This document shows positions 2,100 through 24,879 of a DNA stretch of 42,047 nt, one piece after another. The stretch spans positions 1 through 42,047 of IMG/VR virus record IMGVR_UViG_3300010273_000002. The stretch is one strand, 5' to 3'. Below the pieces are notes generated by a model, which worked only from the letters and a program-made list of their open reading frames with translations, made no database searches and was not told where the DNA came from. The translations under genes were made by a program, and so were the position numbers. Position 1 is the stretch's first letter; each line of letters begins with the position of its first letter. The stretch comes from a virus.

Positions 2100-2322
2100 G
2101 GGATTGCGCTGTTGCTTCCAACGCAGTGGACACTGCCGTCCAGGCTATCTGTCCGGGCACCGATCGGAAGCGCCCACGCCGATGAATGTCCGGCGTGGCT
2201 TCGGGTAACGTGCGATTTCAGGCCGATTTGAGTATTCTGTCGGCCGTGGCGGTGGCGAGCCGGGGTGGTGTCATACTACGCGCCGGAAGAGCCCAACTGC
2301 AAGGCGGGCAGCACCGGGAGTT

Positions 2323-2410
2323 GCTCACGGCCTCCCCTTGCCCGTCAACAGCCAGTGGCCATCGACGCCGAGGATCTTGGGCAATCGGATCATGTACTTG
2401 CCGCCCGGCA
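2323..2410. repeat. Imperfect direct repeat copy A (3' end of the HTH gene); partner at 40751-40838
   Basis: Hand alignment gives about 72 of 88 identical positions in the same orientation. Confidence 0.8.
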
Positions 2411-3211: not shown

Positions 3212-3241
3212 TTTGTATATCGCCCCCTGTTAGAGTACCGG

Positions 3242-3802
3242 TCAGATCCCGTGCTCTCGGTACAGCCTGAGCCGGAGAACAGATCGATCATCCACCCGCG
3301 CCCACGGCCAGTCGGGGCCCCACCGTGCCCTGATCTCCGCCTCGATCTCGGCTCTGATGTCCCGCCAACTCAGCCGCGCGCGCCGAAGCGTCTCGATGAG
3401 ACGACCGGGGATCAGGTCCGCCAGCGCGAATAAGTCTGCGACCCGCTCTTCCCACGTCAGGTAGCCCCGATCGGCTAAGGTGATCCAGTCATCGGCATCG
3501 CCGTTGAGGACGTGCCCGAGCTCGTGGCGGATCACGAAAAGCCTCTCCTCGACAGACAGATCCACACGGATACCGATCCGGTAGTAGCCTGCGATCGGTA
3601 CGAGCGCCATCGCCTTCGCCCCCGTCGCGCCGCGCACGAAGTAGACGCGGCATGTGGCACGACGGAGGAGATTGGAGATTTCGGCTGTGTAGGCCGGAAT
3701 CGGCCCGTGGGCGTAGCGGGGCTCGATCCGCTGGGCAGACCTGACGAGCTCCACCACGTTCCTGATTAACGCGGTGTCAGAGCTTTCCTTGCCGAATCTC
3801 AT
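3242..3802 (-). CDS. ImmA/IrrE-family (COG2856-like) zinc metallopeptidase
   Basis: HEXXH in FVIRHELGHVLNGD. It sits immediately downstream of, and overlaps, an XRE HTH gene, the classic repressor/anti-repressor-protease pairing. Confidence 0.75.
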   Translation of the reverse strand: MRFGKESSDTALIRNVVELVRSAQRIEPRYAHGPIPAYTAEISNLLRRATCRVYFVRGATGAKAMALVPIAGYYRIGIRVDLSVEERLFVIRHELGHVLNGDADDWITLADRGYLTWEERVADLFALADLIPGRLIETLRRARLSWRDIRAEIEAEIRARWGPDWPWARVDDRSVLRLRLYREHGI

Positions 3803-4190
3803 CCTCGGCGTCGAGGAGATGCTGAATCGGGAACCGCTTACCTTCTCTGCGTAGTTCCTCGGCCACCTGCTGCAGCAAGCGTACGAGGAACAATTTGTCG
3901 TCGGCCCGCTCGCCTGGGCCGCCCATGTCGGTCAGCGTACGGTAGAGGGCCGCCTTGCTCCGGAGGAGGCTCTCGGCGCCGCTGGCTGCGGCGTCTTCGT
4001 GCCGGCGCTGTTCCAGGTATCGCGCGATCGCCCTACGCGTACCCGGATACAAGCGTTTCCACTGGCCCCGACGCCAACGGGCAACGGTCTCGTGACTCAG
4101 GCCGATCTCGCGAGCGGCATCGTGGGCGCTCATCTCCCGCGTCGCCTCCACGAAGGCCTCTACCAAGTCCCTATCCTCTTGTCGTGACAA
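3777..4190 (-). CDS. XRE-family phage repressor (CI-like); start uncertain (TTG 4190 or ATG 4133)
   Basis: HTH LVEAFVEATREMSAHDAAREIGLSHETVARWRRGQ. It is divergent from the early operon across an operator-rich region. Confidence 0.7.
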   Translation of the reverse strand: MSRQEDRDLVEAFVEATREMSAHDAAREIGLSHETVARWRRGQWKRLYPGTRRAIARYLEQRRHEDAAASGAESLLRSKAALYRTLTDMGGPGERADDKLFLVRLLQQVAEELRREGKRFPIQHLLDAEDEIRQGKL

Positions 4191-6116: not shown

Positions 6117-7181
6117 ATGGCCACACAAGTGAAGGAGCTGTTCGCTGCGGGCAGGCTCGGTCCGGAGGACCGGGAGGGTTGGCTTGCGCTCCGCCGCCAG
6201 GGGATCGGGGGGAGCGATGTCGCGGCCATCTGCGGGCTCGACCCCTACGGTCGCACGGCCGCGGACGTCTACGACGAGAAGGTCGGGGCCGTGGCGGACC
6301 GGCAGCCGACGCCCGCGATGCAGCGGGGCGCTCTCCTGGAGCCCGTCGCGGCGGCGATTTACGCCGAGCGGACCGGCCGGACCCTCCGGCGCCAGCCGCT
6401 CCGGCGCCACCCCGAGCATGAGTGGATGATCGGCAACGTCGACCGGCAGATCCTGGCGGGGCACGGCGGCGTGACGAGCACCGGCGTCCTCGAGGTGAAA
6501 TGCCCGGGGATCCGCCAATTCGCAAAGGTGAAGGCGAATGGTCTCCCCGAGGCGTGGATCCTCCAGATCCAGCACTATCTCGCCGTCTACGGCTACTCCT
6601 GGGGCTCTTTCGCGGTCTTCAACGCGGAGGCCTGGGAGCTGATCCACTTCGACATCGAGGCGGACGCCGCCCTGATCGAGCGGCTCATCGAGATCGAGCA
6701 CGACTTCTGGCACAACCACGTCCTCGCCGGCGTGCGGCCGGAGCCTGCGCCGGTGGAGCTCCCCAAGCTGCCCGAGGTGTCGGGCCAGGTCGTGACGCGC
6801 GACGACCCCGAGTGGGCGGACGCGATCGCCATGCTCGCCGAGGCGAAGGAGTTCAAGGCGAGCGCGGAGGAGATCGAGGCCGCGGCGAAGGAGCGGATCC
6901 AGGCGCTCGCCGGCGGCTACGGCGTCTTCGAAGGCGCCGGCGCTCGGGTCTACTGGCGCATGATGCCCGGCCGGAAGTCGTTCGACAAGCGAGCGCTCGC
7001 CGCGGCCCGGCCGCTCAACCGCGTTCTCGTCCGCCAGGCGCTCTTCGACCGGGGCATCTCGGCGACCGAGGCCGACCTCATTCTCGACGGGTGCGAGCTC
7101 GACCTCGAGCTCTTCGAGAAGGCCGGGAGCCCCTACGCGGAGTTCCGGGCCTACTTCCTCACCGGCGCGGGGGAGGAGTGA
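6117..7181 (+). CDS. YqaJ/lambda-Exo-like PD-(D/E)xK recombination exonuclease
   Basis: GIGGSDVAAICGLDPYGRTAADVY..MQRGALLEPVA..GVLEVKCP matches the YqaJ viral recombinase pattern. It is paired with RecT. Confidence 0.8.
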   Translation: MATQVKELFAAGRLGPEDREGWLALRRQGIGGSDVAAICGLDPYGRTAADVYDEKVGAVADRQPTPAMQRGALLEPVAAAIYAERTGRTLRRQPLRRHPEHEWMIGNVDRQILAGHGGVTSTGVLEVKCPGIRQFAKVKANGLPEAWILQIQHYLAVYGYSWGSFAVFNAEAWELIHFDIEADAALIERLIEIEHDFWHNHVLAGVRPEPAPVELPKLPEVSGQVVTRDDPEWADAIAMLAEAKEFKASAEEIEAAAKERIQALAGGYGVFEGAGARVYWRMMPGRKSFDKRALAAARPLNRVLVRQALFDRGISATEADLILDGCELDLELFEKAGSPYAEFRAYFLTGAGEE

Positions 7182-7185
7182 TTCG

Positions 7186-7341
7186 ATGGACACGCTGATG
7201 GTTCTCATCGACACGTTCGAGCGCGCCGTGCTGGATCTGGCGGCGGAGCGAGCGCGTGGCAACAGCGGTGATTGGGAGTACCGACAGGTAGACCGCGTGA
7301 AAGCCGCCATCATCGATCACGAGGAGGCCGCCCATGCGTAA
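7186..7341 (+). CDS. Hypothetical small protein (51 aa)
   Basis: My own translation gives MDTLMVLIDTFERAVLDLAAERARG... GGAGGAG lies upstream. Confidence 0.4.
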   Translation: MDTLMVLIDTFERAVLDLAAERARGNSGDWEYRQVDRVKAAIIDHEEAAHA

Positions 7342-7654
7342 CCCCGTGCGCGCCTGGCTCCGCCGGAGCCTCGTCGGTGGCGAATACCTCGGCCACCTCT
7401 TCACCGGGCGGGAGGGCACCCCGAGCGAGACGCCAGTGCTCGTGGTGTCCCTCACCGAGGAGGCCGTCAACCAGACCTACGACCGCCTGGCGCTCGCCTT
7501 CGCCGGCCGGGCCGACCGCTACGAGCTGGCGAGCCTCGCGCTCGACGTGCTCGGGATCCGGCCGGTCCGGCGGCCCGAGGCGCCGGCGGCCACCGTGCTC
7601 ACGATCGGGGACGACCGGGTCCTCGAGGAGTTCCTGGAGGTGGTGAATGAGTAA
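7334..7654 (+). CDS. Hypothetical protein
   Basis: GAGGAGG lies upstream. It overlaps both neighbours by 8 nt. Confidence 0.5.
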   Translation: MRNPVRAWLRRSLVGGEYLGHLFTGREGTPSETPVLVVSLTEEAVNQTYDRLALAFAGRADRYELASLALDVLGIRPVRRPEAPAATVLTIGDDRVLEEFLEVVNE

Positions 7655-8618
7655 CGGCAACGGGAAGTCGCTCGTCCAGAGCAACAAGGCCACGCTGCGC
7701 TCGCTCCTCGAGGCGCCGGAAACCCGGGCGGCGATGGAGCGCGTGCTGCCGAAGTACCTGACCGTCGACCGCATGATCGGGCTCGCGATGCTGGCCGTCA
7801 CGCAGCAGCCGAAACTCCTCGAGTGCCGGCCGCAATCCGTGCTCCAGTCGATCATGCAGGCGGCGCAGCTCGGGCTCGAGGTCAACGGCCCGCTCGGGCA
7901 CGCCTACCTCGTGCCGTACGGCAACATCTGCCAGCTGATCCCCGGCTATCGCGGCCTCATCTACCTCGCGAAGAGGAGCGGGGCGATCGCCGCGGGCGAG
8001 GCGAGGCTGGTCTATGAGGGAGAGACCTTCGATGTCGAGTACGGCACCGACCCGAAGATCGTCCACCGGCCGCGCTGGGACATCGAGCGGATCGACGACG
8101 CGATCGTCGCGGCCTACTTCGTCGCGCGGCTGCCGGACGGCACGCGGCAATTCGAGGTGATGAGCCGCGCGGAGATCGAGCGGATTCGGCAGCGCAGCCG
8201 GGCGAAGGATGAGGGCCCGTGGAAGAGCGACTTCGGCGAGATGGCCCGAAAGACGCCGACCCGCCGCGGGCTCAAGTACCTCCCGATCTCGAACCCCGAG
8301 GAGGGGCGGAAGCTCGCGATGGCGCTCGAGCTCGACAACCGGTTCGAGAGCGGGGAGATGAGCGGGGTGCTGCCCGAGCTGGACAGCGAGGAGTCGATCA
8401 ACGCCGCCGTGCGCGACCGGACCCGCGACCGGATCGCCACGCTCCGGGAGCGGATCGGCGCGACCGGGCGCGACGTGACGCCCCAGACGACGGGCCGGGA
8501 CGCCGGGCCTGAGCCGGAGCCGGAGCCCGACCCGGAGTCGACACCGGCGCCGGAGCCAGAGCCGGCCCCGGCGCCGGTCGCGAGCCTGTTCGACGCGGAA
8601 GACTCCATGCCGTTCTAG
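7647..8618 (+). CDS. recT: RecT-family single-strand annealing protein
   Basis: SVLQSIMQAAQLGLE..GHAYLVPYG..QLIPGYRGLIYLAKRSG and KSDFGEMARKTPTRRGLKYLP are typical RecT signatures. The C-terminal tail is PEPEP low complexity. Confidence 0.85.
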   Translation: MSNGNGKSLVQSNKATLRSLLEAPETRAAMERVLPKYLTVDRMIGLAMLAVTQQPKLLECRPQSVLQSIMQAAQLGLEVNGPLGHAYLVPYGNICQLIPGYRGLIYLAKRSGAIAAGEARLVYEGETFDVEYGTDPKIVHRPRWDIERIDDAIVAAYFVARLPDGTRQFEVMSRAEIERIRQRSRAKDEGPWKSDFGEMARKTPTRRGLKYLPISNPEEGRKLAMALELDNRFESGEMSGVLPELDSEESINAAVRDRTRDRIATLRERIGATGRDVTPQTTGRDAGPEPEPEPDPESTPAPEPEPAPAPVASLFDAEDSMPF

Positions 8619-9097: not shown

Positions 9098-9603
9098 GCA
9101 CGACGCACCCGGCGTTTGAGCGGGCTCCCGAGGAACACCGGTGGTCCGGCACGCTGGACGAGCTGTGGCCGGTGCTGCGGAAGCAGGCGTACGAGATCGC
9201 CGCGGCCACGCCGCCGGGTCAGGAGCGGTGGGCCTGGTTCGTCCTGCCGAGGGGCGCGCTCGTCGCGCTCCGGATCCGGCCCGACTTCCGGAAGGAGCTC
9301 CGGATCGCGCGGGGCGAGCGGCCGGACACGGCCGATGCGAAGCTGCGCTGGGAACGGGAAATCGAGACGTTCCTCAAGCACTTCGGCTGCGAGCGTTGGC
9401 AGCGCATTGACGAGCAGGCGAGCCGCGGTGTGGCCGTCCGGTTCGTCGAACTATGGTCCAACGAGCACGCGGTCGGCCTCTCGCGATGCGCCGACTGCGG
9501 CCGCGAGACGACGTCGACGCCGATCCTCTCCCCGATGCGGTGCCCCGACTGCGTGCGGGCACGGCGCGGGTCCCCGCAACGCCACCTGGAGTTGGTCCGA
9601 TGA
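9094..9603 (+). CDS. Hypothetical protein with a C-terminal zinc ribbon (CADCG..CPDC)
   Basis: ATGA coupling at both ends and two CxxC pairs. Confidence 0.5.
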   Translation: MSTTHPAFERAPEEHRWSGTLDELWPVLRKQAYEIAAATPPGQERWAWFVLPRGALVALRIRPDFRKELRIARGERPDTADAKLRWEREIETFLKHFGCERWQRIDEQASRGVAVRFVELWSNEHAVGLSRCADCGRETTSTPILSPMRCPDCVRARRGSPQRHLELVR

Positions 9604-10310
9604 CGTGCTTGAACTGGTGGGACGGCGTGCTGCCGGTCCTGGACTTCGAGGCGACCGGCACGGACCCGCAGGAAGACCGCATCGTCTCCGTGGCTCTCGT
9701 GCTCTGCACGCCGCGGGGACGCACGCTGCCGGGCGGGGTCGTGACGCTCGTGAATCCGGGCGTACCGATCCCGCAGGAGGCCTCGGCGGTCCACGGGATC
9801 ACGGACGACATGGTGCAGGACAAGCCGACGACTGCGGAGGTCCTGCCCGAGCTGCTCCGATGCCTGATGGGGATCCAGGCGCTCGGCTGGCCGCTCGTGA
9901 TCTACAACGCGACCTACGACTGGCCGCTGCTGAACGCAGAAGCGGCCCGGCACGGCGGGCCGGCGGTCCCTGAGGTGCCGATCATCGACCCGCTCGTGCT
10001 CGATCGAGGCTACGACCGCTTCCGGCCTGGCGGGCGGAAGCTGGGGGACGTGTGCTGGCACTACGGCGTCGAGCTCGTCGACGCGCACGACGCGCTCTCC
10101 GACGCGCTCGCCACGGCGGAGCTCTGCCGGGCGATCGTGAGCCGCTACCCCGAGCTACAGCAGATGGACTTCCGCGCGCTCCATGACCTCCAGGCCGACA
10201 TGCACGCGGCCTGGTTACGGGAGTTCAACCGCTACCGGGCCCAGCAGGGGCGAGAGCCGATCCCGGAAGTCCACTGGCCGGGCATGACGGAGGTGCCATG
10301 CTCGCGATGA
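9600..10310 (+). CDS. DnaQ-like DEDDh 3'-5' exonuclease
   Basis: Exo I is LDFEATG, Exo II is VIYNATYDWPLL and Exo III is HDALSDALATAEL. Confidence 0.8.
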   Translation: MTCLNWWDGVLPVLDFEATGTDPQEDRIVSVALVLCTPRGRTLPGGVVTLVNPGVPIPQEASAVHGITDDMVQDKPTTAEVLPELLRCLMGIQALGWPLVIYNATYDWPLLNAEAARHGGPAVPEVPIIDPLVLDRGYDRFRPGGRKLGDVCWHYGVELVDAHDALSDALATAELCRAIVSRYPELQQMDFRALHDLQADMHAAWLREFNRYRAQQGREPIPEVHWPGMTEVPCSR

Positions 10311-10907: not shown

Positions 10908-12200
10908 ATGCCGAGACGCAGAAAGCCATGGTCGCGAACGGTTGGGAGACGGGGCTACAAGGTCACCGTCCTCGAGCGCGTCCCGGGCGGACCGCTCTAC
11001 CTCAGGTGGTGGGATCCGACTGCGCCGGGGAGCCGGGCAACGGGCGGCCTCGGCAACTACCGCCTCCGGAGCCTCGGACACCGGGACCGCGAGCGCGGGG
11101 AAAAGGAGGCGGAGAAACTCGCCGCCGAACTCCTGGCCGCGGGAACGGCTGCGCGCACCGGCCGGATCACTCTCTCCGAGCTGTTCGCGCGCTACGAGCA
11201 GGAGGTGTCCGTCTACAAGAAGGGGGCGCAGGTTCGCGAGGATCGCCGCCGAATGGAGCTCTGGCGGCATTTCCTCGGGGGTGAGCGGGATGCCGGATCG
11301 CTCACGCACGAGGACCTCCGGCGTTTCGTCCGGCTCAGGAAGGCGGGCCGAATCAGCCTGCCGCCCACGATCGAGCAGGGAAGGGAACGGCTCCGCAGGC
11401 TATCGGAGAACCCCTCGGACGGCACGGTCGGGGCTGACATCGTGTTCCTCCAGGCCGTGCTCAATTGGGCGGTGCGGGCACGGCTGCTCGAATCGAACCC
11501 GGTGCACGGTTTCGAGCGGCCGAAGGCGAAGAATCCGAAACGGCCAGTCGCGACCTACGATCGCTTCCTGGCCGTCCGAGAGAAAGCCGACGAGGTCGAT
11601 CCACAAGGGCTCTTCGGTTCCTTCATGGACCTGGTCGAGTCTCTCGGCTGGCGAGTGAGCGCGATCTGCCAGATCTGGGCGAGTGACGTCGACCGCGCGA
11701 GCCAGCCGAAGGCGCCCTACGGCCGGATCAAGAAGCGCGGGGAGGTCGACAAGGAGGGCGTCGAGATGTGGGTGCCGCTCTCCGAGACCGCGCGCGCGGC
11801 GATCGACCGGATCCTCGAGCTGAACCCGGTGGTCGGGAACGCCTACCTGTTCCCGTCACCGCGGCGAAAGGGACGGCCATGGAGCCGGTGGCACGCACGG
11901 GACCTGCTCGAGCGCGCCGAGCGGGCCGCGGGAGTCCCGCCGATCGACGGCGGCCATTTCCACCCGTATCGGCGGAAGTGGGCGACCGAGAGGAAGCACC
12001 TGCCCGCGCAGGACGTGGCGGCCGCGGGCGGCTGGCGAGACCTCCGGAGCCTCCAGAACACCTACCAGCAGGTCGATGAGGAGACGCTGCTAGCGGTGGT
12101 GTTGGAGCCCCGGAAACTGCGGTCTGCCATTACAAATGCCATAGCAGGCGGAGGGCAGACGGACGAAGCCCCCACGGCGGGAACCGCCGCAGGGGCTTGA
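10908..12200 (+). CDS. int: Tyrosine recombinase / phage integrase
   Basis: C-terminal catalytic region GWRVSAICQIWASDVD, HFHPYRRKWATE and GGWRDLRSLQNTYQQ matches the R..HxxR..Y pattern. An SD lies upstream. Confidence 0.85.
   Translation: MPRRRKPWSRTVGRRGYKVTVLERVPGGPLYLRWWDPTAPGSRATGGLGNYRLRSLGHRDRERGEKEAEKLAAELLAAGTAARTGRITLSELFARYEQEVSVYKKGAQVREDRRRMELWRHFLGGERDAGSLTHEDLRRFVRLRKAGRISLPPTIEQGRERLRRLSENPSDGTVGADIVFLQAVLNWAVRARLLESNPVHGFERPKAKNPKRPVATYDRFLAVREKADEVDPQGLFGSFMDLVESLGWRVSAICQIWASDVDRASQPKAPYGRIKKRGEVDKEGVEMWVPLSETARAAIDRILELNPVVGNAYLFPSPRRKGRPWSRWHARDLLERAERAAGVPPIDGGHFHPYRRKWATERKHLPAQDVAAAGGWRDLRSLQNTYQQVDEETLLAVVLEPRKLRSAITNAIAGGGQTDEAPTAGTAAGA
12136..12155 (+). repeat. Candidate integrase arm-type site (ATGCCATAGCAGGCGGAGGG), inside the 3' end of int
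   Basis: The same ~20-mer recurs at 12373-12393 and its 11-nt core at 12361-12371. The copies flank the tRNA-like core. Confidence 0.45.
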
Positions 12201-14778: not shown

Positions 14779-15099
14779 GTGCGGGAGCGGGTGGCGGCCG
14801 ACGCAGACGAGATCTGGTACCACTGGATCGAGGGCCAGGAGGATCTAGCGATCGCGGCGCTGCGGAAGGCTAGCGACGAGGAACTGGCCCGCTTCCTCGA
14901 CATGCTCGCGCGGTGGCAGAAGTGCCCGAAGCCGAGCGACCACGACGCGGCCGCCGTCCTCCGCTCCGAGGCGCAGGGGGATGGCTGGCGGATCGCCGAG
15001 CCCGCCCGTGAGCTTGTGCGCCGCGAGACGCCGGAGTCGCGCGCCGTCGCGCAGGACGCAATCGCCGCCGCCCGCCTGGGCGAAGGAGGTGGGGAGTGA
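14779..15099 (+). CDS. Hypothetical protein
   Basis: Very high G/C at third codon positions, and the stop is GTGA-coupled to the next gene. The ATG-14735 alternative frame has poorer codon bias. Confidence 0.5.
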   Translation: MRERVAADADEIWYHWIEGQEDLAIAALRKASDEELARFLDMLARWQKCPKPSDHDAAAVLRSEAQGDGWRIAEPARELVRRETPESRAVAQDAIAAARLGEGGGE

Positions 15100-16346
15100 T
15101 TTTCCCGCAGATGCTCTTGGATCTGCACTGCGAGCTGATCGTGGATCTGTTCGCTGGCGGCGGTGGCGCGTCGCTGGGGATTGAGATGGCGACCGGGCGG
15201 ATGGTCGACATCGCGATCAATCACGACCCGGCCGCGGTCGCCATGCACAAGGCGAACCATCCGCAGACCCGGCACCTTCTGTCGGACGTCTTCGAGGCGG
15301 ACCCCCGCGAGGTCACCCAGGGCCGGCCGGTTGGGCTGCTCTGGGCATCTCCAGATTGCACGCATCACAGCAAGGCCCGGGGTGGCAAGCCGCTGCGCGA
15401 TAGAGCGCGGCGCACCCGAGTGCTTGCGTGGGTCGTGACGCGGTGGGCAGGGACCGTGCGCCCACGGGTCATTATCCTCGAGAACGTCGAGGAATTCGCC
15501 GATTGGGGACCGCTCGTTGGTCCGCCGGATCGGCTGCGCCCCTGCCCCCGCCGGAAGGGTCGGACGTTCCGGCAGTGGGTCCGCTCGCTCGAGCGGCATG
15601 GGTATGAGGTCCAATGGCGGGAGCTCCGGGCGTGCGACTACGGCGCCCCGACGATCCGCAAGCGGCTGTTCGTCATCGCGCGCTGCGACGGTCGCCCGAT
15701 CATTTGGCCTGAGCCGACGCACGGGCCGGGACGCCGCTTCCCCTACCGGACCGCGGCGGAGTGCATCGACTGGTCGCTCCCGATGCTCTCGATCTTCGCG
15801 TCCCCCGAGGAGGCGCGGGAGTGGGCGCGGGTGCATGGCGTCGGCGTGCCGGTCCGGCCGCTCGCGGAGGCGACGCTGTGCCGGATCGCCCGCGGTGTTG
15901 TGCGGTTCGTGCTGGAGAACCCCGAACCGTTCATCGTCGGCGTCGCCGGCAACGGCGGCCAGCTCGTGGCGTCGTTCATCCAGTCCTACTACGGCGCCGA
16001 GAACCGCCAGGACCTACGCGAACCGCTCCGCACGATCCCGACTCGCGACCGGTTCGGGCTGGTTACAGTCACGATCGCGGGCCAGCCCTACGTCATCACG
16101 GACATTGCGATGCGCATGCTGACCCCGCGCGAGCTCTACCGCGCTCAGGGATTCCCGGACTCGTACATCATTGACCGGGGCGCGGATGGTCGGCGGCTGA
16201 CCAAGACCGAGCAGGTGCGCATGGTGGGCAACTCGGTTTGCCCGCAGGTCGCGGCTGCACTCGTGCGGGCGAATGTTCCGGAGATGATTGCGCGCGATGA
16301 AGTGCGAGTTCCGATGCGGCGGAAGAGGACGATGGCAACGGCTTGA
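15096..16346 (+). CDS. DNA (cytosine-5) methyltransferase with no cognate nuclease gene adjacent
   Basis: Motif I is DLFAGGGGASLG and motif IV is WASPDCTHHSKA. Motif VI is ILENVEEF, motif VIII region is RELYRAQGFPDSY and motif X is GNSVCP. Confidence 0.85.
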   Translation: MIFPQMLLDLHCELIVDLFAGGGGASLGIEMATGRMVDIAINHDPAAVAMHKANHPQTRHLLSDVFEADPREVTQGRPVGLLWASPDCTHHSKARGGKPLRDRARRTRVLAWVVTRWAGTVRPRVIILENVEEFADWGPLVGPPDRLRPCPRRKGRTFRQWVRSLERHGYEVQWRELRACDYGAPTIRKRLFVIARCDGRPIIWPEPTHGPGRRFPYRTAAECIDWSLPMLSIFASPEEAREWARVHGVGVPVRPLAEATLCRIARGVVRFVLENPEPFIVGVAGNGGQLVASFIQSYYGAENRQDLREPLRTIPTRDRFGLVTVTIAGQPYVITDIAMRMLTPRELYRAQGFPDSYIIDRGADGRRLTKTEQVRMVGNSVCPQVAAALVRANVPEMIARDEVRVPMRRKRTMATA

Positions 16347-16897: not shown

Positions 16898-17382
16898 AGA
16901 TCCTGGCGCTTGACCTCTCACTCACCCGGACGGGCGTGGCCCGGTGTGACGGCGTGCGGGTGCTGGTGCCGCCCAAGGATCTCCGGGGCATGGAGCGGCT
17001 GCTCTACCTCGAGGAGGCGATCCTGAAGCGGGCCGCTAATGCCCAGCTCGTCGTCCTGGAGGGCTACTCGTTCGGGTCGCGGGGCCGGGCGGTGGTCGAC
17101 ATCGGCGAGCTCGGGGGCGTGATTCGGCTCGCCTTGTATCGGCGTGGCATCCGCTTCGTGGACGTGCCGCCGGCCACACTCAAGCGCTACGCGACCGGGA
17201 AGGGCAACGCCTCGAAGGAGGAGGTGCTCGCGGCGGCGATCCGGCGTTTGGGGTACGCAGGACACGATCACAACGAAAGCGATGCGATGTGGCTCTACGC
17301 GATGGCCCAGGACCGGTATCTCGGCGTCAGCCGCGTCCCGAGCGCGCACCGCGCGGCGCTCGACGCTGTCGCCTGGCCTTGA
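16894..17382 (+). CDS. ruvC: RuvC-like Holliday junction resolvase
   Basis: KILALDLSLTRTGVA, VVLEGYSF, KRYATGKGNASKEEV and HNESDAMWLY match the RuvC catalytic D/E/D/D layout. The start is TTG with GGAGGAAGG upstream. Confidence 0.75.
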   Translation: MKILALDLSLTRTGVARCDGVRVLVPPKDLRGMERLLYLEEAILKRAANAQLVVLEGYSFGSRGRAVVDIGELGGVIRLALYRRGIRFVDVPPATLKRYATGKGNASKEEVLAAAIRRLGYAGHDHNESDAMWLYAMAQDRYLGVSRVPSAHRAALDAVAWP

Positions 17383-17491
17383 CATTCGGTTTTCCGTATG
17401 CCACGGTTCACCTTAGCGCCCGGGCGGATGCGGCCACGCCATCGCCCGTGCGGTCACCGATCGGCGCGGCCAGGACGAGACTCGACGATGC
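17379..17491 (+). promoter_or_regulatory. Only sizeable gap before the packaging genes: candidate late promoter and/or pac region
   Basis: TTGACA lies at 17379-17384 but I found no convincing -10 at 16-18 nt. GC is locally lower. Confidence 0.25.
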
Positions 17492-17974
17492 ATGGACCGC
17501 AGGGACGCCCGCGGCCCCGGCCGCGGCCCAAGCCGTACTGAGCACGGCGGCGCCGACGGCGTGCCTCGCGGCGCCGACGGCGTCGAGCTCATCCCGCAGC
17601 CGCACGGCGGCTATCTCCGCCCCGGGGGCATGCCCGGGAATCGCGGCGGTGGCCGGCCGCCCTCTGCGGTGCGCAGGCTCGCGCGCCTCGAGTTCGAGAA
17701 GCGCATCCCCACGCTCGCCGAGCTCGCCGACTCCAAGACGGAGCGGACGCGCGACCGGATTCGCGCGATCGACGTGCTGGGGAAATACGGGCTAGGCCAG
17801 GCCCGGGGGCTCGATGAAGAGGAGTTTGAGGCGGTGGTCCTCGAGCTCGCCGGCGCGGTGCAGCGGCGGCTCGTGGGCGCGCTTCCGCCGGCGCAGGCTG
17901 ACGAGGTGATCGCGCAGCTCTTCGAGGACTGGAAGGAGATCCTGCGTGCTCGCCGCACGGGTGCTGCCGAGTGA
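17492..17974 (+). CDS. Terminase small subunit (putative)
   Basis: It sits immediately upstream of and overlapping TerL. The basic N-terminus carries GNRGGGRPPS and RDRIRAIDVLGKYGLG, as in many small terminases. Confidence 0.45.
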   Translation: MDRRDARGPGRGPSRTEHGGADGVPRGADGVELIPQPHGGYLRPGGMPGNRGGGRPPSAVRRLARLEFEKRIPTLAELADSKTERTRDRIRAIDVLGKYGLGQARGLDEEEFEAVVLELAGAVQRRLVGALPPAQADEVIAQLFEDWKEILRARRTGAAE

Positions 17975-19631
17975 CGACGACCCGTTCGTCGCCGCGATCG
18001 AGCGTGTGGCGACCCGCTTCACGTCTGCGGGGCGCCCGCGGCCGCTCGTGCAGTACCAGCGCGACCCGGTGGGATTCTTCCGGGACGTGCTCGACGTCGC
18101 GGAACACACGATCCGGTGGTCACTAAATCCGGGCTACGACCGACATCGCTGGGACGGGACGCCCGATCCGCTGGTGGTGATCGCGGAATCGCTGTCCGAC
18201 TGGAAGACCGTCGGGGTGGAAAGCGGCACGGGCACGGGGAAGTCGTTCGAACTGGCGTGCATCATCCTCTGGTTCGTGGCGTGCTGGGACGGGGCTCGGG
18301 TCTTCACCTTCGCGCCGAAGGAGGATCAGCTGCGGCTGTACTCCTGGGCGGAGATCCGGAAGATGTGGCCCCGGTTCAAGGCGAGGTTCCCGCAGGCCGA
18401 ACTGACCGATCTCCGGATCCGGATGATTCCCGGGTCGGACGAATGGGGCGCGTGGGGCTGGCCGGTGCAGGTCCGATCGGGGGAAGACGTGGCCAGCCGC
18501 GCAGCCGGAATGCACGCCGAACACATGCTGCTCATCTACGAAGAAACGCAGGGGATCGAACCCGCGGTGCTGGACGCCGGGGAGCAGACGTGCACGGGGC
18601 CGCACAACTTGCAGCTCGCCGTCGGCAACCCGGACAACCAGCAGGACGCCCTGCACCTGTTCTGCGAGCGGCCGGACGTCGTCGCCGTGCGGATCTCCGC
18701 GCTCGATCACCCCAACGTCGTGTGTGACGACCCGGACATCGTCCCGGGCGCCGTCTCGCGCGAGTCGGTCGAACGCCGCCGGAAGCGGCACGGCGAGGGA
18801 TCGCGCCTCTACGAGTCGAGGGTGCGGGGGATTTCTCCGGAGCAGGCCGAAGACGCCCTCATCCGCGCCGAGTGGATTGATGCCGCGGTCGCCCGCTACA
18901 ACGACCCCGAACTGCGCCGGGGAAAGCCTGCGCGGGGCGTCGACGTCGCGAACTCCGAAAACGGCGACCGCGCCGCGATTGCCCGGGGCATCGGCGCGTG
19001 CCTCCTGGAAGTCGAGGCCTTCCCCTGCCCCGACGCCTCGAAGCTCGGGGTGCGCGTGGCGCTCGAGATGGCGCTCGAGGGGATCGAGCCGCGGCACGTG
19101 GGCGTCGACAGCGGCGGGGTCGGCTCGTCGACCGTGAACAAGCTGAAGGAGCTCGGGAAGTACGTCCGGGCGCTGAACGCCGGTTCCGCGGCTGTGCCGA
19201 CGATCGACGAGGACTTACTGCGCGAGGCGGGCAAGGGCGTGCGGCAGGAGGAGGTTTTCCTGAACCTGCGGGCGCAGATGTGGTGGCAGATGCGGATGGA
19301 TCTCCAGCACGGCCGTATCGCGCTGCCGGACGATCCCGAGCTGCGCCGCGACCTGCTGACCCCGCGCTGGGAGGTCAGGAACGGCAAGATCGTGATCGAA
19401 GCGAAGGAAGAGATCCGGAAACGACTCCGCGGCAGGAGCCCCGACAAGGCGGATGCCGCAGTGCACTGGAACTGGGTCCGCGACCGGCGCCCGTTTGTCA
19501 AGGACGAGGGGCCGAAGAGCGCGTGGGACCCGAGTGTCTTGCAGCACGAGGCCCGCGAAAACCGGCGGGTACGCGAGATGCCGGCCAGACGGCCGGCGAT
19601 TGATCCCTCGATCATGGAGACGGTCGACTGA
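17946..19631 (+). CDS. terL: Terminase large subunit
   Basis: Walker A is GVESGTGTGKSF and Walker B-like is MLLIYEETQG. A C-terminal nuclease-like half is present. Size and position fit. Confidence 0.8.
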   Translation: MLAARVLPSDDDPFVAAIERVATRFTSAGRPRPLVQYQRDPVGFFRDVLDVAEHTIRWSLNPGYDRHRWDGTPDPLVVIAESLSDWKTVGVESGTGTGKSFELACIILWFVACWDGARVFTFAPKEDQLRLYSWAEIRKMWPRFKARFPQAELTDLRIRMIPGSDEWGAWGWPVQVRSGEDVASRAAGMHAEHMLLIYEETQGIEPAVLDAGEQTCTGPHNLQLAVGNPDNQQDALHLFCERPDVVAVRISALDHPNVVCDDPDIVPGAVSRESVERRRKRHGEGSRLYESRVRGISPEQAEDALIRAEWIDAAVARYNDPELRRGKPARGVDVANSENGDRAAIARGIGACLLEVEAFPCPDASKLGVRVALEMALEGIEPRHVGVDSGGVGSSTVNKLKELGKYVRALNAGSAAVPTIDEDLLREAGKGVRQEEVFLNLRAQMWWQMRMDLQHGRIALPDDPELRRDLLTPRWEVRNGKIVIEAKEEIRKRLRGRSPDKADAAVHWNWVRDRRPFVKDEGPKSAWDPSVLQHEARENRRVREMPARRPAIDPSIMETVD

Positions 19632-19981
19632 TGAAGGGACCGAGGAACGTGTTGGCGAAGCAGCAGCGCGGCCGGCAGCGCCAGCCGCTCAGGGTCGGCG
19701 ACTGGTACACCGCGCCCCGCGCCGGAGAGGTCGCACGCCGTAGCGAGGTGTGGGGGCTGCTGCGCTGGTACCACGAGACGTGGGTGCAGCCGCATCGGGG
19801 AGTCCGCGGGATGATCCGGCGGATGTGGTGGCGCCTGACCCGCCAGCACCAGCGCCTGCTCTCACCGTGGGAGCAGCTCGATGCGCGCATGGCCGTCCTC
19901 GCCGAGCGCCGCGCTGCCGATCTCGATGAAGAGGCGCGCCAGCTCGAGGCCGCCCGGTCGAACGGGGCCGTCGCGCCGTGA
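19631..19981 (+). CDS. Hypothetical Trp/Arg-rich protein
   Basis: TGATG coupling to terL and very high G/C at third codon positions. Confidence 0.55.
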   Translation: MKGPRNVLAKQQRGRQRQPLRVGDWYTAPRAGEVARRSEVWGLLRWYHETWVQPHRGVRGMIRRMWWRLTRQHQRLLSPWEQLDARMAVLAERRAADLDEEARQLEAARSNGAVAP

Positions 19982-20403
19982 CGCTGACCCTGATTGCCAT
20001 CGGCTCGCTGCTCGTGCACGAGTGGGCGCATGGCCTGACGGCCGTCGCGCTGGGCGACAGGCTTCCGCGGCTCCTCGGTCGCCACTGGCCGGACCCGCTC
20101 GCGCACCTGCACCCGTTCGGCTCGATCCTGCTGCCGATCGCGCTGGCGGCGTTCGGCCTGCCGCCGATCGGCTGGGGCCGGCCGCTGCCGTTCTCGGCGG
20201 TGCGCCTCGGGCGCCGGCGGTCGCTCCTGGTTCTCGCCGCAGGCCCGGCGGCGAACCTCGTGCTCGCGGCCGTCGGCGCCGTCGTCGGCTGGCGCGAGGT
20301 CGTGCTCGTCAACCTCGCGCTCTGCGGTGTCAACCTGGTGCCGCTCGGCACGCTGGACGGGCGGCGGATTCTGCACACGATCCGGCAAGGACGGTACGCA
20401 TGA
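19978..20403 (+). CDS. Site-2 protease family (M50, COG1994-like) membrane metalloprotease, short form (141 aa)
   Basis: HExxH is present as LLVHEWAHG. The spacer GDRLPRLLGRHWPDPLAHLHPFGSILLP..GWGRPLP resembles the family. AAGPAANLVLA and NLVPLGTLDGRRIL give the NxxPxxxLDG motif. Confidence 0.65.
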   Translation: MTLTLIAIGSLLVHEWAHGLTAVALGDRLPRLLGRHWPDPLAHLHPFGSILLPIALAAFGLPPIGWGRPLPFSAVRLGRRRSLLVLAAGPAANLVLAAVGAVVGWREVVLVNLALCGVNLVPLGTLDGRRILHTIRQGRYA

Positions 20404-21034
20404 GCACCAGTAGCGCAACTCCCCGCGGCTACGTCTCCGACGCCGAACGCGAGCGCCGGTTCACGTACCGGCCGCCCAAGGGCGACCAGCCGGAGCGGTA
20501 CAACCGGATCACCGCCGAGTGTCTTCGGCTGGCGAAACTCATCCGCGAGTTGGTCGCCCGCCACGGCGGGATCCGCACCGTGCGCACGCACCCGGCCACG
20601 TTCTTCGACTGGCGGACCGGCGGACCGGCGGCCCGGCGCGGGGTTGGGCGAACACGATCGTCTGCGCGGACGGCTGGACGCGCGCGCTCACGCCGGCGGA
20701 GGAGAGGGTGATCACGGAGCTGCTCCTCGCCTCCCTCGGCTATGTCCTCGCCGCGCTCTGCCTGGGGCTCTGGTGGGGTGAGCGCGGCCGGCGGCTGGAC
20801 GCCCAGCGCCGCGAAGGCGTCATCCAGGTCGATCGGCCGAAGCGGGCGATCGTGCGGCGTTCGGACGAAGGCGGGGTGGTGCCGGCCGACGTACAGTCGG
20901 GGATCGACATCGCAGCAGCGCGCCAGCGGTACATCGAAGACGCCGTGCGCGAAGGCTACGATCCAGAGGACGCCGCCCGGGACTTCGATCAGATCATGGC
21001 CCGGATCTACTCGGACCAGGCGGTGACGATCTGA
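20400..21034 (+). pseudogene. Single-pass membrane protein gene interrupted by an 8-bp tandem duplication. As written it is two ORFs: 20400-20711 and a frame-shifted continuation to 21034, with a possible GTG restart at 20708.
   Basis: Third-position G/C is about 90% in the ATG-20400 frame up to about 20620. It then switches to the 20519 frame exactly at GGCGGACC GGCGGACC GGCGG (20611-20631). Deleting one 8-mer fuses the frames into about 208 aa, with TM segment ITELLLASLGYVLAALCLGLWWG. Confidence 0.5.
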
Positions 21035-21303
21035 TGGGCGACGTGCAGTTCACCGACCGGGAACGCGAGATCGTCGGGTGCGTCGTGCGCGGGATGTCCG
21101 ATAAGGAGATCGCGCGCCGGCTCGGGATCTCGCGCGAAACGGTCAGGACGCACATCGAGAAGGCCGCGGCCAAGATCCCGGGCAAGGCACTCCGGCCGCG
21201 GCCAAAGCTCTACGCCTGGTGGGCGGGCCAGATCGAGGGGCGCCGGTCGATCCCCGAAAATGGGGATGGCGATGCACCATTCGTCGTTGCGAATGTGGGT
21301 TAG
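21034..21303 (+). CDS. Stand-alone LuxR/GerE-type HTH regulator (89 aa)
   Basis: FTDREREIVGCVVRGMSDKEIARRLGISRETVRTHIEKAAAKI matches the GerE-type HTH pattern. Confidence 0.75.
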   Translation: MGDVQFTDREREIVGCVVRGMSDKEIARRLGISRETVRTHIEKAAAKIPGKALRPRPKLYAWWAGQIEGRRSIPENGDGDAPFVVANVG

Positions 21304-21333
21304 CCATGGCGAACCCTACCATCCGCAACGCGA

Positions 21334-23631
21334 ATGGCATCAGCTGCCACGACGCCGCGCCGGTTCACGCGGCCGAGTGAAATCCCGCCTCTCCGGCGCC
21401 ATCCGTTCGAGCCGAACGAATGGGACGAGGCCCGTTGCGCCTTCAACAAGGCGCTGTGGCACTCCCAAGACGAACTGCTGCGCCAGCGGGACAGGCAGGT
21501 TGAGGAAAATCTGCGCATGCTCCACGGCCAGCACTGGATCGCCTGGAGCGACCTGCGGCAGCGATTCGTTGATATCGCCTCCACGCTGTCTGACGACGAA
21601 AAGCGCTGGCGCCACTTCCCCGTCCTGAACCGCCTCTTCCTCTGGTTCGTCCTGCTGCACGCCAGGATGAACGAGAACCCGCCGGTGCTCTCCTGGCAGG
21701 CGGGCCCCGACCGAATCGACGCGCTCCTCGCCGAGACGGCCGACGTCCTCTTCAAGCACCTCTGGTACGACGTCGAGATGCTGGAGGTGCTCGACCGCTT
21801 GACGGCGTGGATGATCCCCTCGGGGCGAGCCTACCTCAAGTCGCGCATCGACCCCATGAAGGGGGATCCGATCCTCGCGCGGGGGCCGGCCGTGCTCCAG
21901 CTGGTCGGGCACGAGGGCGAGCCGATCGAGCGCTACGTCGACGACGTGCCGTGGGGGCCGGACGAGGCTGGCGAGTGGCGCCCGCGAGCCGCGCTCGTCC
22001 AGGACGGCGACGACTACGCCGTCCGGCCGACGGGCTTCCCGCACGTGATTTACGAGGGTGGGCTGGAAGTCGACGTGCTGACCTGCCTCGAGGTCCGGGG
22101 CGAGTGGGGTGAGCACATCCCGTGGCACAAGAAGGCATGGCACACGCATCGGGCGCTGCTCACGCCGATGCAGGCTTATGAGATGTTCGGGGTGGAGCTC
22201 GAACCCGACGTGCGGGGCGAAGAGGCAGAGAACCTGGGCATCCTCTGGCGCCTGCTCCACGGGTCCGGGCTGTTCGGTGCCGCCGATTCCCGCGCGAACA
22301 GCTACACGCCGGAGCCGGGCAAGGAGTTCGTCACGATCTACGAGACCTGGTTCCGGCCGTCGCGCTTCCCGGGCATGGAGCGCACGCCGGACAGCCCAGG
22401 CGGGCGCCTGCTGATCACGACCGGCGGCGGGGTCGTGCTCCGGGACGGCGTGCGCCCGCGGCCGTTCCGGTACACATCGCCGATTCGCTGCTTCGACATG
22501 GTGACCCTGCCGGGCCGGCCGCAGGGCACGAGCCCGCAGGAGTTCCTGAACGGCCCGATCCGCACGCGAAATCGCTTACATGCGCAGGCGATCAACGTCG
22601 CGGCGAAGATGGCGAACCCGCTCCGGATCGTGGACCGGAGCGCGGGGATCCAGGCGGGCGACATCCAGGGCATCCCTGGCGAGGAGATCCTGGCCGACCG
22701 GAGCCGGTCGCGGGGACCCGTCGTCGAATTCGTCGCACCGCCGGCTATTGGCAGCGACGTCTACCAGGTCAGCGACCGCCTCGCGACGGAAGTCGACCAG
22801 ATCGGGAATATCAGCGGCACGGAGGGCACGCCGCCGACGCGCGATCCCAGCGGCGAGCTCGTGAAGGAACTGCGGTTCAACGCCGATCGGCCCATCGCGG
22901 CGACGATGCGCCGCATGGTGATCGAGCTCGGGCGGATGGCCGAAGACTGGATCGCGTGGCTACCGCTGATCTACGACCAAGAGAAGGTCATCTCGATCGT
23001 AGGGGAAGACGGGATAGATCGGACGATCACCGTGTACCCGATGCTGTTCGAGCAAGGGAAGGTCAACGTCAAGCCCGAAATCGAATCGATGCTGCCGGAA
23101 TCCCGGGCGGAGCGGCAGCAACGGGCTTACGTGCTGTGGAAGGACGGCGCCTACGGCGATCCGACGTCGCCGGAGGCGATCAACAAGTTCTTGGAGGAAG
23201 CGCGCTTCCCGCACATGTCGAGGCTGGTCCGTCCGGGTGGGGTCGACCGTTCGACGGCCGCGCAGAACGTCGGGAAGCTGCTCCAGGGCGCCAGCGCGCT
23301 CGAGATCCCGATTTTCCCGTGGTACGACCTCCGGGTGCATATCGACGTGGTCGAGCGGTTCCTGAAGTCGCCGGAGTTCTTGCGCGCCGATCGGTCCGTG
23401 CAGGAGCAGTGCGCGCTGTACTGGAGCCTGCTTCGGGAAGCGCTGATCGAGCGGCAGCTGATGGACGAGGCGCAGGCGCTGGCCGCCCAAGCGCGGGCGG
23501 CCCGTCAGCAGGCCGCTACGCCAAGCGAAGCCATGGCCGCATCAGAGGCCGCGCCGCCGGAAGGATTCGAGGCGCCGCCTGAGGCAACGCCGGCCGCGAC
23601 AGCGATCCCGGCCGCATCCGTGACGCCGTGA
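21334..23631 (+). CDS. Portal protein (putative)
   Basis: 765 aa and the first large gene after the terminase region, followed by scaffold and capsid genes. The C-terminal tail is acidic and Ala-rich. Confidence 0.6.
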   Translation: MASAATTPRRFTRPSEIPPLRRHPFEPNEWDEARCAFNKALWHSQDELLRQRDRQVEENLRMLHGQHWIAWSDLRQRFVDIASTLSDDEKRWRHFPVLNRLFLWFVLLHARMNENPPVLSWQAGPDRIDALLAETADVLFKHLWYDVEMLEVLDRLTAWMIPSGRAYLKSRIDPMKGDPILARGPAVLQLVGHEGEPIERYVDDVPWGPDEAGEWRPRAALVQDGDDYAVRPTGFPHVIYEGGLEVDVLTCLEVRGEWGEHIPWHKKAWHTHRALLTPMQAYEMFGVELEPDVRGEEAENLGILWRLLHGSGLFGAADSRANSYTPEPGKEFVTIYETWFRPSRFPGMERTPDSPGGRLLITTGGGVVLRDGVRPRPFRYTSPIRCFDMVTLPGRPQGTSPQEFLNGPIRTRNRLHAQAINVAAKMANPLRIVDRSAGIQAGDIQGIPGEEILADRSRSRGPVVEFVAPPAIGSDVYQVSDRLATEVDQIGNISGTEGTPPTRDPSGELVKELRFNADRPIAATMRRMVIELGRMAEDWIAWLPLIYDQEKVISIVGEDGIDRTITVYPMLFEQGKVNVKPEIESMLPESRAERQQRAYVLWKDGAYGDPTSPEAINKFLEEARFPHMSRLVRPGGVDRSTAAQNVGKLLQGASALEIPIFPWYDLRVHIDVVERFLKSPEFLRADRSVQEQCALYWSLLREALIERQLMDEAQALAAQARAARQQAATPSEAMAASEAAPPEGFEAPPEATPAATAIPAASVTP

Positions 23632-23661
23632 CGAGCACGGCCCCACGTGAGGAGCGAGCAC

Positions 23662-24879
23662 ATGGACCAGACGACCGAAACGACGCAGGTGACGACTGAG
23701 GCCCTGGCGCAGCCGGCGGAAACGCAGGCGACGGCCAGCGCGGACGTTCCGGCGTCGGATCAGCCGCAGCTGCCGCCGTTCGAGCGGAAGCTGCAGGCGA
23801 TCTTGGATGGCGATCAGCCCGCCGCAGAGGCCGATCAGGCGACGGAGCCGGCGGCCGGGGGTGACGACGCCCCGGCGGGCGACGGGCGTGAGGAGGCGGG
23901 CCCGGCTGGCGAGGCGGACCAGCAGCCGGCCGCGCAGGCGAGCGACGCCATTCCGGTGATCCGACTCCCGGGGCGGCAGGAAACGGATCCGGACTTCGAG
24001 GTGCGCGTCACGCCCGAACTGCGCCAGGAGCTCGAGGCGCAGGGGATCGACCCGCAGAAGTTCCTGGAGCGGGCGAACCAGCTGCGCAACGAAGGGATGC
24101 GCCGGCGGCAGTTCGAAGAAGCGATAATGGAGATCGAGGCCGATCGCCAGGACCTCGCCTGGCTCGAACAGGAGATCCGGGAGCGGCCGGCGGAGTTCAT
24201 CACGGAACGGATCTCCCCGCAGCTGCTGCCGGAAGTCGCCCGGGCCGTGCTCGCGCGCCTCTCGGATGACCAGTTCCAGGACATCCTGACGACGGTTGTT
24301 GGCTGGGAAACCGACCCTGCGGCGCGCCGTCTGGTGGCGGCGGAGGCACGGGAGCGCAGCATCGCCCGCCGGGAGCAGCTGCAGTCTGAGAGTGCAATCG
24401 CGCGCCAGCGCCAGGCCTACATCCGCGACATGGCGAACCAGATCATGGCGCTGGTCCCCGATGATATACCGGACGATCAGGCGAACGAGTTCTTCGATTT
24501 CGCCGTCTACAAGCTGGACCAGTGGGCCAGGAGCCAGCCGCGGGGCACGCGCCTGGACCCGGCCCAGGTGCCGGAGCTCCTGGAACAGCTCGGCGCCCTG
24601 AAGCCATTCGGCCTGAGTGTCAACGACCAGGCCGCCCGGAAGCCGACGCGCGACACGACCTCCAATGCGCGGCCCGTGCGCCCCGCAGACGATCCGGAGC
24701 TCATCGCGCGTGCGAAGCAGTCCGGGGAAGACCTGAAGCGCCGCATGGAACGCAAGCGGTTGGCGGTCACGACGCCCGCGGGCGCCGGCGCCCCCGCTGC
24801 GAGTCTCGCGCCGCCGAAGGGTCAGTCATTCGAGGAGCGCATGAACTGGCTTGAGAAGCGACTCGGCCTCAAGCGGTGA
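23662..24879 (+). CDS. Scaffolding protein (putative)
   Basis: Acidic, Gln/Ala/Glu-rich and helical sequence between portal and capsid. GAGGAG lies 7 nt upstream of ATG 23662. Confidence 0.55.
   Translation: MDQTTETTQVTTEALAQPAETQATASADVPASDQPQLPPFERKLQAILDGDQPAAEADQATEPAAGGDDAPAGDGREEAGPAGEADQQPAAQASDAIPVIRLPGRQETDPDFEVRVTPELRQELEAQGIDPQKFLERANQLRNEGMRRRQFEEAIMEIEADRQDLAWLEQEIRERPAEFITERISPQLLPEVARAVLARLSDDQFQDILTTVVGWETDPAARRLVAAEARERSIARREQLQSESAIARQRQAYIRDMANQIMALVPDDIPDDQANEFFDFAVYKLDQWARSQPRGTRLDPAQVPELLEQLGALKPFGLSVNDQAARKPTRDTTSNARPVRPADDPELIARAKQSGEDLKRRMERKRLAVTTPAGAGAPAASLAPPKGQSFEERMNWLEKRLGLKR

Follow-up and report, generated by a model that had tools for sequence, protein, structure and literature searches.

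The window analysed here is the whole 42,047-nucleotide (nt) stretch of IMG/VR virus record IMGVR_UViG_3300010273_000002. Bases 1-123 recur as an exact direct repeat at bases 41925-42047, and the window represents a phage genome of ~41.9 kb that is complete and circularly assembled, with a G+C content of ~70%. This report concerns the interval between the gene for the large terminase (terL) and the portal gene, which contains five genes, here named A, B, C1, C2 and D, that encode proteins of 116, 141, 103, 108 and 89 amino acids (aa), respectively (Table 1). B is a very small member of the M50 family of site-2 proteases (S2Ps), C2 is a single-pass membrane protein, D is a LuxR-type DNA-binding domain and C1 is best read as the remnant of a sponge gene. 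As described below, A, C2 and D form a conserved cassette, and B is an optional resident of a variable slot inside it.

Gene models and the M50 protease

An independent gene caller, run on the European Nucleotide Archive copy of the contig, predicted products of the same five lengths. All of the junctions overlap (terL/A by ATGA, A/B by GTGA, B/C1 by ATGA, C1/C2 by GTGA and C2/D by TGATG), and a scan of positions 17000-24000 revealed neither a sigma-70-like promoter nor a + strand terminator. Because of the overlapping junctions and the lack of these signals, the interval must be embedded in the late operon, which agrees with a first-pass annotation of this DNA. The same annotation had counted four translationally coupled genes between terL and the portal gene; the coupling is real, but there are five genes rather than four. 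The arrangement is also more than chance, as the Pfam matches exceed the curated cut-offs and the gene arrangement turns up again on many independent contigs, which come from different samples.

The discrepancy in number lies in the third of the four genes, which was described as a membrane protein whose transmembrane (TM) segment separates ~110 aa from ~85 aa. Such a gene does not exist; the description joins C1 to C2 although the two are read in different frames, and no open reading frame (ORF) spans 20400-21034. The frame changes at the GTGA overlap (20708-20711), which has AGGAGA upstream, and the C2 homologs in the relatives start directly at the TM segment. Since C1 and C2 are separate genes, C2 is a single-pass protein essentially without an N-terminal domain. 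A programmed -1 frameshift joining C1 to C2, by which the fused protein could still arise, was considered and is unlikely because the relatives begin C2 at the TM segment; neither a canonical slippery heptamer (by eye) nor an Rfam match was found at the junction. The G+C signal at third codon positions (GC3) sits in the C2 frame over 20620-20708, the ~90 nt just before the C2 start, yet in this frame the stretch from 20519 to 20708 is devoid of start codons. The signal may be a remnant of an older coding sequence. An 8-bp tandem duplication (GGACCGGC, twice), read from the sequence, lies near the point where the GC3 signal switches frame.

B matches Peptidase_M50 (PF02163) with 32.3 bits (gathering score 27.2), and the description of a 141-aa polytopic protein with both M50 signatures, HEWAH and NLVPLGTLDG, proved to be correct. 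When 19 phage and cellular homologs were aligned, the HExxH, GPxxN and NxxPxxxLDG motifs were invariant, with H14, E15, H18, G89, P90, N93, N119, P122, D127 and G128 unchanged, and the catalytic and zinc-binding residues stay invariant down to ~33% identity. The B family profile matches every solved S2P type in the PDB, namely RseP (7w6y, E 1e-10), MjS2P (3b4r, E 3e-9), SpoIVFB (8vjl, E 8e-8) and the Aquifex RseP. An AlphaFold2 (AF2) model of B is all-helical and confident (pLDDT 90.7, pTM 0.84). Judged from the ratio of nonsynonymous to synonymous substitution rates (dN/dS), which is 0.32-0.39 against five relatives, or about 0.35, B is under purifying selection. We infer from these features that B is a very small and apparently intact membrane-embedded zinc protease.

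The closest homologs of B are cellular proteins of the YwhC/COG1994 type, annotated as 'site-2 protease family protein'. They are 33-40% identical to B and have in common with it a GDxxxxxxGRxxxxPxxH loop in addition to the catalytic motifs. However, the cellular proteins are longer (211-247 aa), with a ~40-residue insertion and a ~60-70-residue C-terminal extension, probably have more TM helices, and are encoded in a housekeeping context next to a tRNA-synt_1b gene. A tblastn search of 50,697 GenBank phage records with B gave only partial matches of ~40%, in Listeria and faecal 'phage' contigs that probably carry cellular M50 genes. Likewise, the best 80 loci from a prophage/host scan with the B profile contained only cellular homologs of at most 40% identity, including Listeria chromosomal ones. 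B therefore looks like a YwhC/COG1994-type S2P trimmed to its ~140-aa catalytic core, without PDZ or CBS domains or extra TM segments.

Phage relatives exist in databases under protease names. A Foldseek search of the BFVD with the B model placed two uncultured Caudovirales proteins at the top (E 0.014), a 'Peptidase M50' (A0A6J5SMS1, 184 aa) and one of the 'SpoIVFB Zn-dependent proteases' (A0A6J5RHB6, 268 aa); no other protein matched the B model better in structure (probability 1.00, TMq 0.59), but both are longer than B, only 20-22% identical to it and uncharacterised. A search for phage-encoded S2P/M50 proteins in the library that could be searched found no relevant paper, and neither PHROGs nor NCBIfam has a family for B or C2. 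Databases already contain unstudied entries for phage M50 proteins, and B would be a new minimal variant of the M50 family that is carried by a phage.

Table 1. Positions of the genes, motifs and other features in the window
Feature	Position (nt)	Strand	Remarks
terL (large terminase)	17946-19631	+	Left boundary of the interval; phrog_2, E 3e-25
A	19631-19981	+	Soluble, basic, Trp/Arg-rich protein, 116 aa; conserved cassette member
B	19978-20403	+	Minimal M50 site-2-protease-type protein, 141 aa; PF02163
B, HEWAH motif	20017-20031		Residues 14-18, inside predicted helix 2-24
B, GPAAN motif	20242-20256		Middle-helix GxxxN-type motif; G89, P90, N93
B, NLVPLGTLDG motif	20332-20361		Residues 119-128; NxxPxxxxDG third-zinc-ligand (Asp) motif
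C1	20400-20711	+	103-aa ORF, best read as decayed Acb2/Tad1-family remnant; PF24729, phrog_1454
Tandem duplication, 8 bp	20614-20629	+	In the C1 tail
C1-tail segment, 33 nt	20643-20675	+	Absent in frame from L014 and L104 (DNA alignments)
C2	20708-21034	+	Single-pass membrane protein, 108 aa; GTG start
C2, TM segment	20711-20776		Residues ~2-23
C2, GERGRR motif	20777-20794		Invariant; part of GERGRRxD
C2, helical hairpin	20903-21016		Residues 66-103
D	21034-21303	+	Stand-alone GerE/LuxR-type (NarL/FixJ effector-type) DNA-binding domain, 89 aa
Portal gene	21334-23631	+	Right boundary of the interval; P22_portal PF16510, phrog_156
ImmA/IrrE-type M78 peptidase	3242-3802	-	
YqaJ/RecT recombination pair	6117-8618		Early region
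RNase_T exonuclease	9453-10310		Early region
Tyrosine integrase	10908-12200	+	
C5 DNA methylase	15096-16346		Early region
Multi-TM holin-like protein	38967-39611		Candidate lysis gene; weak Phage_holin_4_1 match
Spanin-like protein	39605-40228		Candidate lysis gene; N-terminal TM segment and coiled-coil-like body
DUF5675/phrog_1501 protein	40309-40731		Candidate lysis gene

The A-C2-D cassette and its variable slot

C2 belongs to a larger family than B (120 clusters of ~100-120 aa versus 21 for B). Its AF2 model (pLDDT 87.6) has one continuous helix from residue 2 to 35, which runs from the TM segment into the GERGRRxD motif; G24, E25, R26, R28, R29 and D31 are invariant in the family, and the invariant Gly24 and Gly27 lie at the boundary between membrane and cytoplasm. 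The linker between this motif and the C-terminal hairpin is variable and disordered. The tail before the TM segment is only 1-4 residues long in C2 and 0-12 residues in 37 family members, in which all of the positive charges are C-terminal of the TM segment. Because the N-terminal tails are almost free of Lys and Arg and the residues that follow the TM segment are strongly basic, we predict that C2 has its N-terminus outside and its C-terminus inside (N-out/C-in), with ~85 aa in the cytoplasm. Searches of C2 for an anti-sigma domain (ASD, zf-HC2) and of its profile against the PDB gave no match, and the C2 model had no significant Foldseek match in the BFVD.

D was described in the first-pass annotation as an 89-aa GerE/LuxR helix-turn-helix (HTH) protein resembling sigma region 4. 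The HTH assignment holds (GerE PF00196, E 3e-12, 46.4 bits, gathering score 23.5), but the kinship to sigma factors does not, as LuxR-type profiles match far better. For example, Sigma70_r4 scores E 6e-8, and in the PDB the D profile matches GerE (1fse) with E 4e-11 and aligns with the NarL, FixJ and VraR domains over positions 5-62, while the single sigma factor among the matches has E 1e-4. D has only the GerE/region-4-like HTH and no sigma region 2. By these profile comparisons, D is an ordinary complete GerE-type domain and not a sigma factor. Like GerE of Bacillus subtilis and the LuxR/NarL/FixJ effector domains, it is a four-helix LuxR-type HTH of GerE size; unlike them, it is encoded by a phage, as part of a late operon, and has a membrane protein as its partner gene product. 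A repeat search for a repeated D-binding site found nothing convincing.

The third member of the cassette, A, is the 116-aa Trp/Arg-rich protein of the earlier description, and it stands as described. It has seven Trp, 23 Lys plus Arg, a net charge of +11 and no TM segment, and it contains the motifs DWY, WYH and RRxWWRL. It matches no family in Pfam, PHROG or NCBIfam. Its sole PDB profile match, to IRC4 (5cog, E 0.011 over 45 residues), was judged unreliable. By these searches, neither A nor C2 belongs to a described family.

The comparison set consisted of about 30 related viral and metagenome contigs (identified here by L numbers), most of them high in G+C and with names that point largely to soil and sediment metagenomes. 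Searching the same 50,697 GenBank phage records by tblastn with the portal protein, A, C1 and C2 detected no relative. In the comparison set, C2 and D, usually with A, are a conserved cassette upstream of the portal gene, and the A homologs come directly after terL. Even at the distant loci L117 and L118, terL is followed by an A-like protein with an RWYRRLxRW motif and then by C2. (The L118 terL, at 1547-4183, encodes 878 aa and has an apparent intein-like insertion.) The order terL-A-B-(variable)-C2-D-portal is kept in L002, L003, L006, L008, L010, L011, L017 and L018, with B identity down to 44-48%, and in L018 the cassette stands behind a different type of terL. The A-C2-D cassette is a conserved, uncharacterised late-gene set in a broad clade of uncultured phages.

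Wherever B was found, it is inside this cassette, in the variable slot that separates A from C2. The space downstream of B, up to C2, is occupied by C1 in the window, L014 and L104, by a 90-aa Zn-ribbon gene in L105, by 90-aa and 92-aa genes in L002, by a 277-aa gene in L010 and by a 42-aa ORF in L006; in L003 it consists of 137 nt with no called gene, and in L008 and L011 there is nothing. An AAA_33 gene separates A from B in L006. Three contigs, L006 (2631-3271), L099 (2277-3004) and L100 (2498-3168), have a full-length Acb2-like gene and, immediately downstream of it, a RyR-domain (PF02026-like) gene; both lie within the terL-portal interval or close to it, and they may be a recurrent counter-defence pair. 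L103 has the RyR-like gene only (2942-3319).

The presence or absence of B was scored with local hidden Markov models at loci found with the C2 profile, a search that is unbiased towards B. D is present at 15 of the 20 such loci that have at least 0.9 kb of downstream sequence, mostly abutting or overlapping the C2 stop codon, and so C2 and D are co-inherited. B is present at only three of the 18 loci with at least 1.4 kb upstream and absent from the other 15. Among the loci that do not have it is L106, in which the C2-D-portal DNA is 93% identical to the window and the homology jumps from position 19957 to 20708, so that window positions 19958-20707 (B and C1) have no counterpart. Consequently, the co-inheritance test set out in the first-pass annotation fails for B. 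The portal proteins of B-positive genomes are 95, 82, 65, 55, 55 and 51% identical to that of the window, and those of B-negative genomes are 99, 64, 61, 58, 48, 48 and 47% identical. Where B is present, B and portal identities fall together (86/95, 77/82, 72/65, 48/55 and 39/51%). Because B tracks the portal identity and the B-positive and B-negative genomes are interleaved, these patterns would imply that B is a long-standing but optional resident of the A-C2 junction that has been lost repeatedly.

The D genes display another pattern. There are two allele classes, only ~28% identical to each other, in phages that share 69-77% identity with the window in B and C2 (the other class is at 6471-6713 in L003, 3433-3675 in L011 and 3988-4233 in L002). 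In other words, a D that is ~28% identical is paired with a C2 that is still 69-75% identical to that of the window, and this exchange of D is hard to reconcile with a tight, co-evolving interface between C2 and D. In L106, a D of the window type (99%) occurs together with an A of the other type (57%). Such combinations are mosaic exchanges at gene boundaries.

C1, which precedes C2 in the window, appears to be outside the module. It scores 28.4 bits on PF24729 (gathering score 27), and its match to phrog_1454 covers residues 12-52. Only residues ~12-52 look like the family. They comprise FTYRPPKGDQPERY and helix 1 (FTYRPPKGDQPERY...LAKLIRELV aligns with the family) and include the conserved Tyr, so that C1 resembles the Acb2/Tad1 proteins in its N-terminal half. 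It differs from them in lacking the second helix of the hairpin and ending in an Arg-rich tail, ~48 residues long, in which 85% of the second codon positions are G or C (GC2 0.85), a value that is not coding-like. An exhaustive phmmer search with C1 found 14 relatives at E values up to 0.001, most of them full-length and ending ...PxxREQSLALTxLEE...ANAAIARxG; the stretch PxxREQSLALTxLEE...ANAAIA is the second helix that the window C1 does not have. The C1 family profile matches an Acb2 homolog (9ptq, E 4e-6) exactly over the missing hairpin. The L104 allele (1364-1666) keeps LTPPGREQELALTALEEVRMR, the start of the second helix, which a net 27-nt deletion removed from the window. The same unrelated Arg-rich tail ends all of the C1 alleles, including the one in L014 (709-987).

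In the Acb2 of phage PaMx33, Y11 and K26, which bind cyclic dinucleotides, are N-terminal, and R67 and T74, which bind trinucleotides, are C-terminal (PMC10312549). We assume that the equivalents of R67 and T74 fall in the portion that C1 has lost. With an Arg-rich tail in place of the second hairpin helix, C1 is unlikely to be a functional sponge, and it is best read as a stepwise-decaying Acb2-type sponge gene. If so, the interval displays the allele-by-allele decay of a sponge gene of the type directed against CBASS and Thoeris.

Possible roles of the protease

The first-pass annotation proposed that these genes are the parts of an anti-sigma/sigma-type switch that works by regulated intramembrane proteolysis (RIP). 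A protease, a single-pass protein and a LuxR-type HTH protein are indeed real neighbours, as the gene models and Pfam matches confirm. The comparison with known systems is less favourable. In the RseP/RseA/sigma-E and RasP/RsiW/sigma-W systems, the proteases are from the same family as B (see the RseP match above), and enzymes of this type prefer substrates with short extracytoplasmic stubs. However, they require PDZ gating and a prior site-1 cleavage, and B has no PDZ domain; RseA and RsiW are type II (N-in) proteins with N-terminal cytoplasmic anti-sigma domains, while C2 is predicted to be N-out and starts at its TM segment; and the partner released in those systems is an extracytoplasmic function (ECF) sigma factor with regions 2 and 4, while D is an HTH only. 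The SpoIVFB/pro-sigma-K system of B. subtilis sporulation is closer. SpoIVFB, like B, is an M50 protein with HExxH and NxxPxxxxDG motifs, and pro-sigma-K has a short N-terminal membrane-associated segment followed by a cytoplasmic C-terminal body, a layout that C2 appears to have. The differences are that SpoIVFB comes with a CBS domain and two inhibitors, BofA and SpoIVFA, none of which B has, and that the product of SpoIVFB is a complete sigma factor, which C2 is not.

The explanation that we favour, although we would give it slightly less than an even chance of being right, is that B is an optional, ungated minimal S2P in an exchangeable slot, with C2 as its likeliest single substrate, and that A-C2-D is a conserved cassette. 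B would be made late in infection alongside the structural proteins and inserted into the cytoplasmic membrane, and there, as an intramembrane zinc protease without gating, it would cut TM helices with very short external stubs. It would cut the anchor of C2 and free the cytoplasmic part, which would resemble SpoIVFB and pro-sigma-K rather than RseP and RseA. S2Ps such as RseP, RasP and SpoIVFB generally accept TM segments that have short external stubs and helix-destabilising residues. C2 is ranked first among the substrates because it has a stub of 1-4 residues and Gly24 and Gly27 at the membrane boundary and because it has been the neighbour of B throughout the divergence of the lineage. 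Even so, its being the substrate is a tentative suggestion that we regard as more doubtful than not, and cleavage of host membrane proteins by B is given about the same modest weight. Since C2 and D persist without B in most of the relatives, the only role left for B would be that of a modulator, or of a substitute that the phage brings for a host S2P, and not that of the core of a switch.

Several observations weigh against the favoured explanation. The predicted orientation of C2 is the reverse of that of canonical S2P substrates, and most relatives keep C2 and D without B. The set of loci retrieved by a B query is biased, since such a query favours B-containing loci. A Foldseek search of the PDB with the B model gave only ferritin-like helical bundles at E values above 1 (best E 1.1), with RseP in 29th place (E 4.9). 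Finally, the counter-defence type of cargo in the same interval (Acb2-like, RyR-domain and AAA_33 genes) would suit a host-directed B equally well.

This last point leads to the strongest competitor, in which B is an accessory protease from a counter-defence or host-takeover slot that acts without A, C2 and D on membrane proteins of the host, for example anti-sigma factors, TM defence effectors or division proteins. We consider it a possibility worth keeping in mind, though not a probable one. The slot and interval hold exchangeable accessory genes, namely the Acb2-like remnant in the window, the Acb2-like and RyR genes and the AAA_33 gene described above, and the Zn-ribbon and other small genes that are cargo in L002, L010 and L105; B is dispensable; and it appears to descend from cellular S2Ps with the loss of every regulatory and gating part. 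Unlike the other cargo, however, B has held the same junction while the portal protein diverged to ~51% identity. It is less likely that A, C2 and possibly D are helpers of head assembly or packaging, for example as a membrane-anchored portal or prohead-initiation factor functionally like T4 gp40, with B as unrelated cargo. Their position beside terL and the portal gene is conserved across the broad uncultured clade, even where terL is of another type, and C2 need not be a holin, a role that is unlikely for it, because there is a separate candidate lysis cassette with holin-like and spanin-like genes at 38967-40731. Still, C2 is not a homolog of T4 gp40, the one known analogue compared (hhalign probability 0.06%), and gp40 lacks an N-terminal TM segment; it is hard to see what a DNA-binding LuxR domain would do in assembly; and the tie between C2 and the portal is one of position only.

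The classical RIP switch, in which B cleaves the membrane protein and thereby releases or activates a sigma-region-4-like D, has become very improbable. It is true that the genes for an M50 protein, a single-pass TM protein and an HTH protein lie side by side with translational coupling and that C2 and D are a conserved pair. Yet the parts list fails on architecture, topology and co-inheritance, as there is no 110-aa cytoplasmic domain, C2 lacks an anti-sigma domain and is predicted to have the opposite topology, D is a GerE/NarL-type domain without sigma region 2, B is missing from most of the C2-D loci and the divergent D alleles are paired with well-conserved C2 proteins. A phage RIP switch is thus hypothetical, and its strongest form is refuted. 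A looser version, in which the phage clade tethers C2, as a small regulator, to the membrane beside a LuxR-type protein and part of the clade carries a pared-down, ungated S2P that clips the anchor late, as SpoIVFB does with pro-sigma-K, freeing the cytoplasmic domain of C2 for D, RNA polymerase or the packaging machinery, also seems unlikely to us, if less so. The notion that B is an inactive relic, or pseudo-enzyme, is barely credible: B is very small for an S2P and has been lost in many relatives, but the invariance of its catalytic and zinc-binding residues, its dN/dS and its confident predicted fold all argue otherwise.

If B is active, a phage would be supplying its own intramembrane protease, and B would be about the smallest known S2P, consisting of ~140 aa with only the catalytic core helices and no gating. 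As such, it would be a useful minimal model for intramembrane metalloproteolysis. If B does clip the C2 anchor, this would be the first phage-encoded circuit of intramembrane proteolysis that is regulated, or timed, and no functional S2P would be smaller than B. A signalling switch, however, is not established by activity of B, by conservation of A-C2-D or by the decay of C1.

The rest of the genome

The phage looks temperate because it has an ImmA/IrrE-type M78 peptidase and a tyrosine integrase. The other genes of the early region listed in Table 1 are accompanied by a weak match to RuvC, and searches of the genome for tRNA genes and Rfam families found none. The candidate lysis cassette hints at a diderm host. 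A direct repeat of 94 nt, 81% identical between its two copies (2312-2405 and 40740-40833), reads on the reverse strand as ...HWLLTGKGRP*, which resembles the C-termini of two paralogous XRE-type HTH genes.

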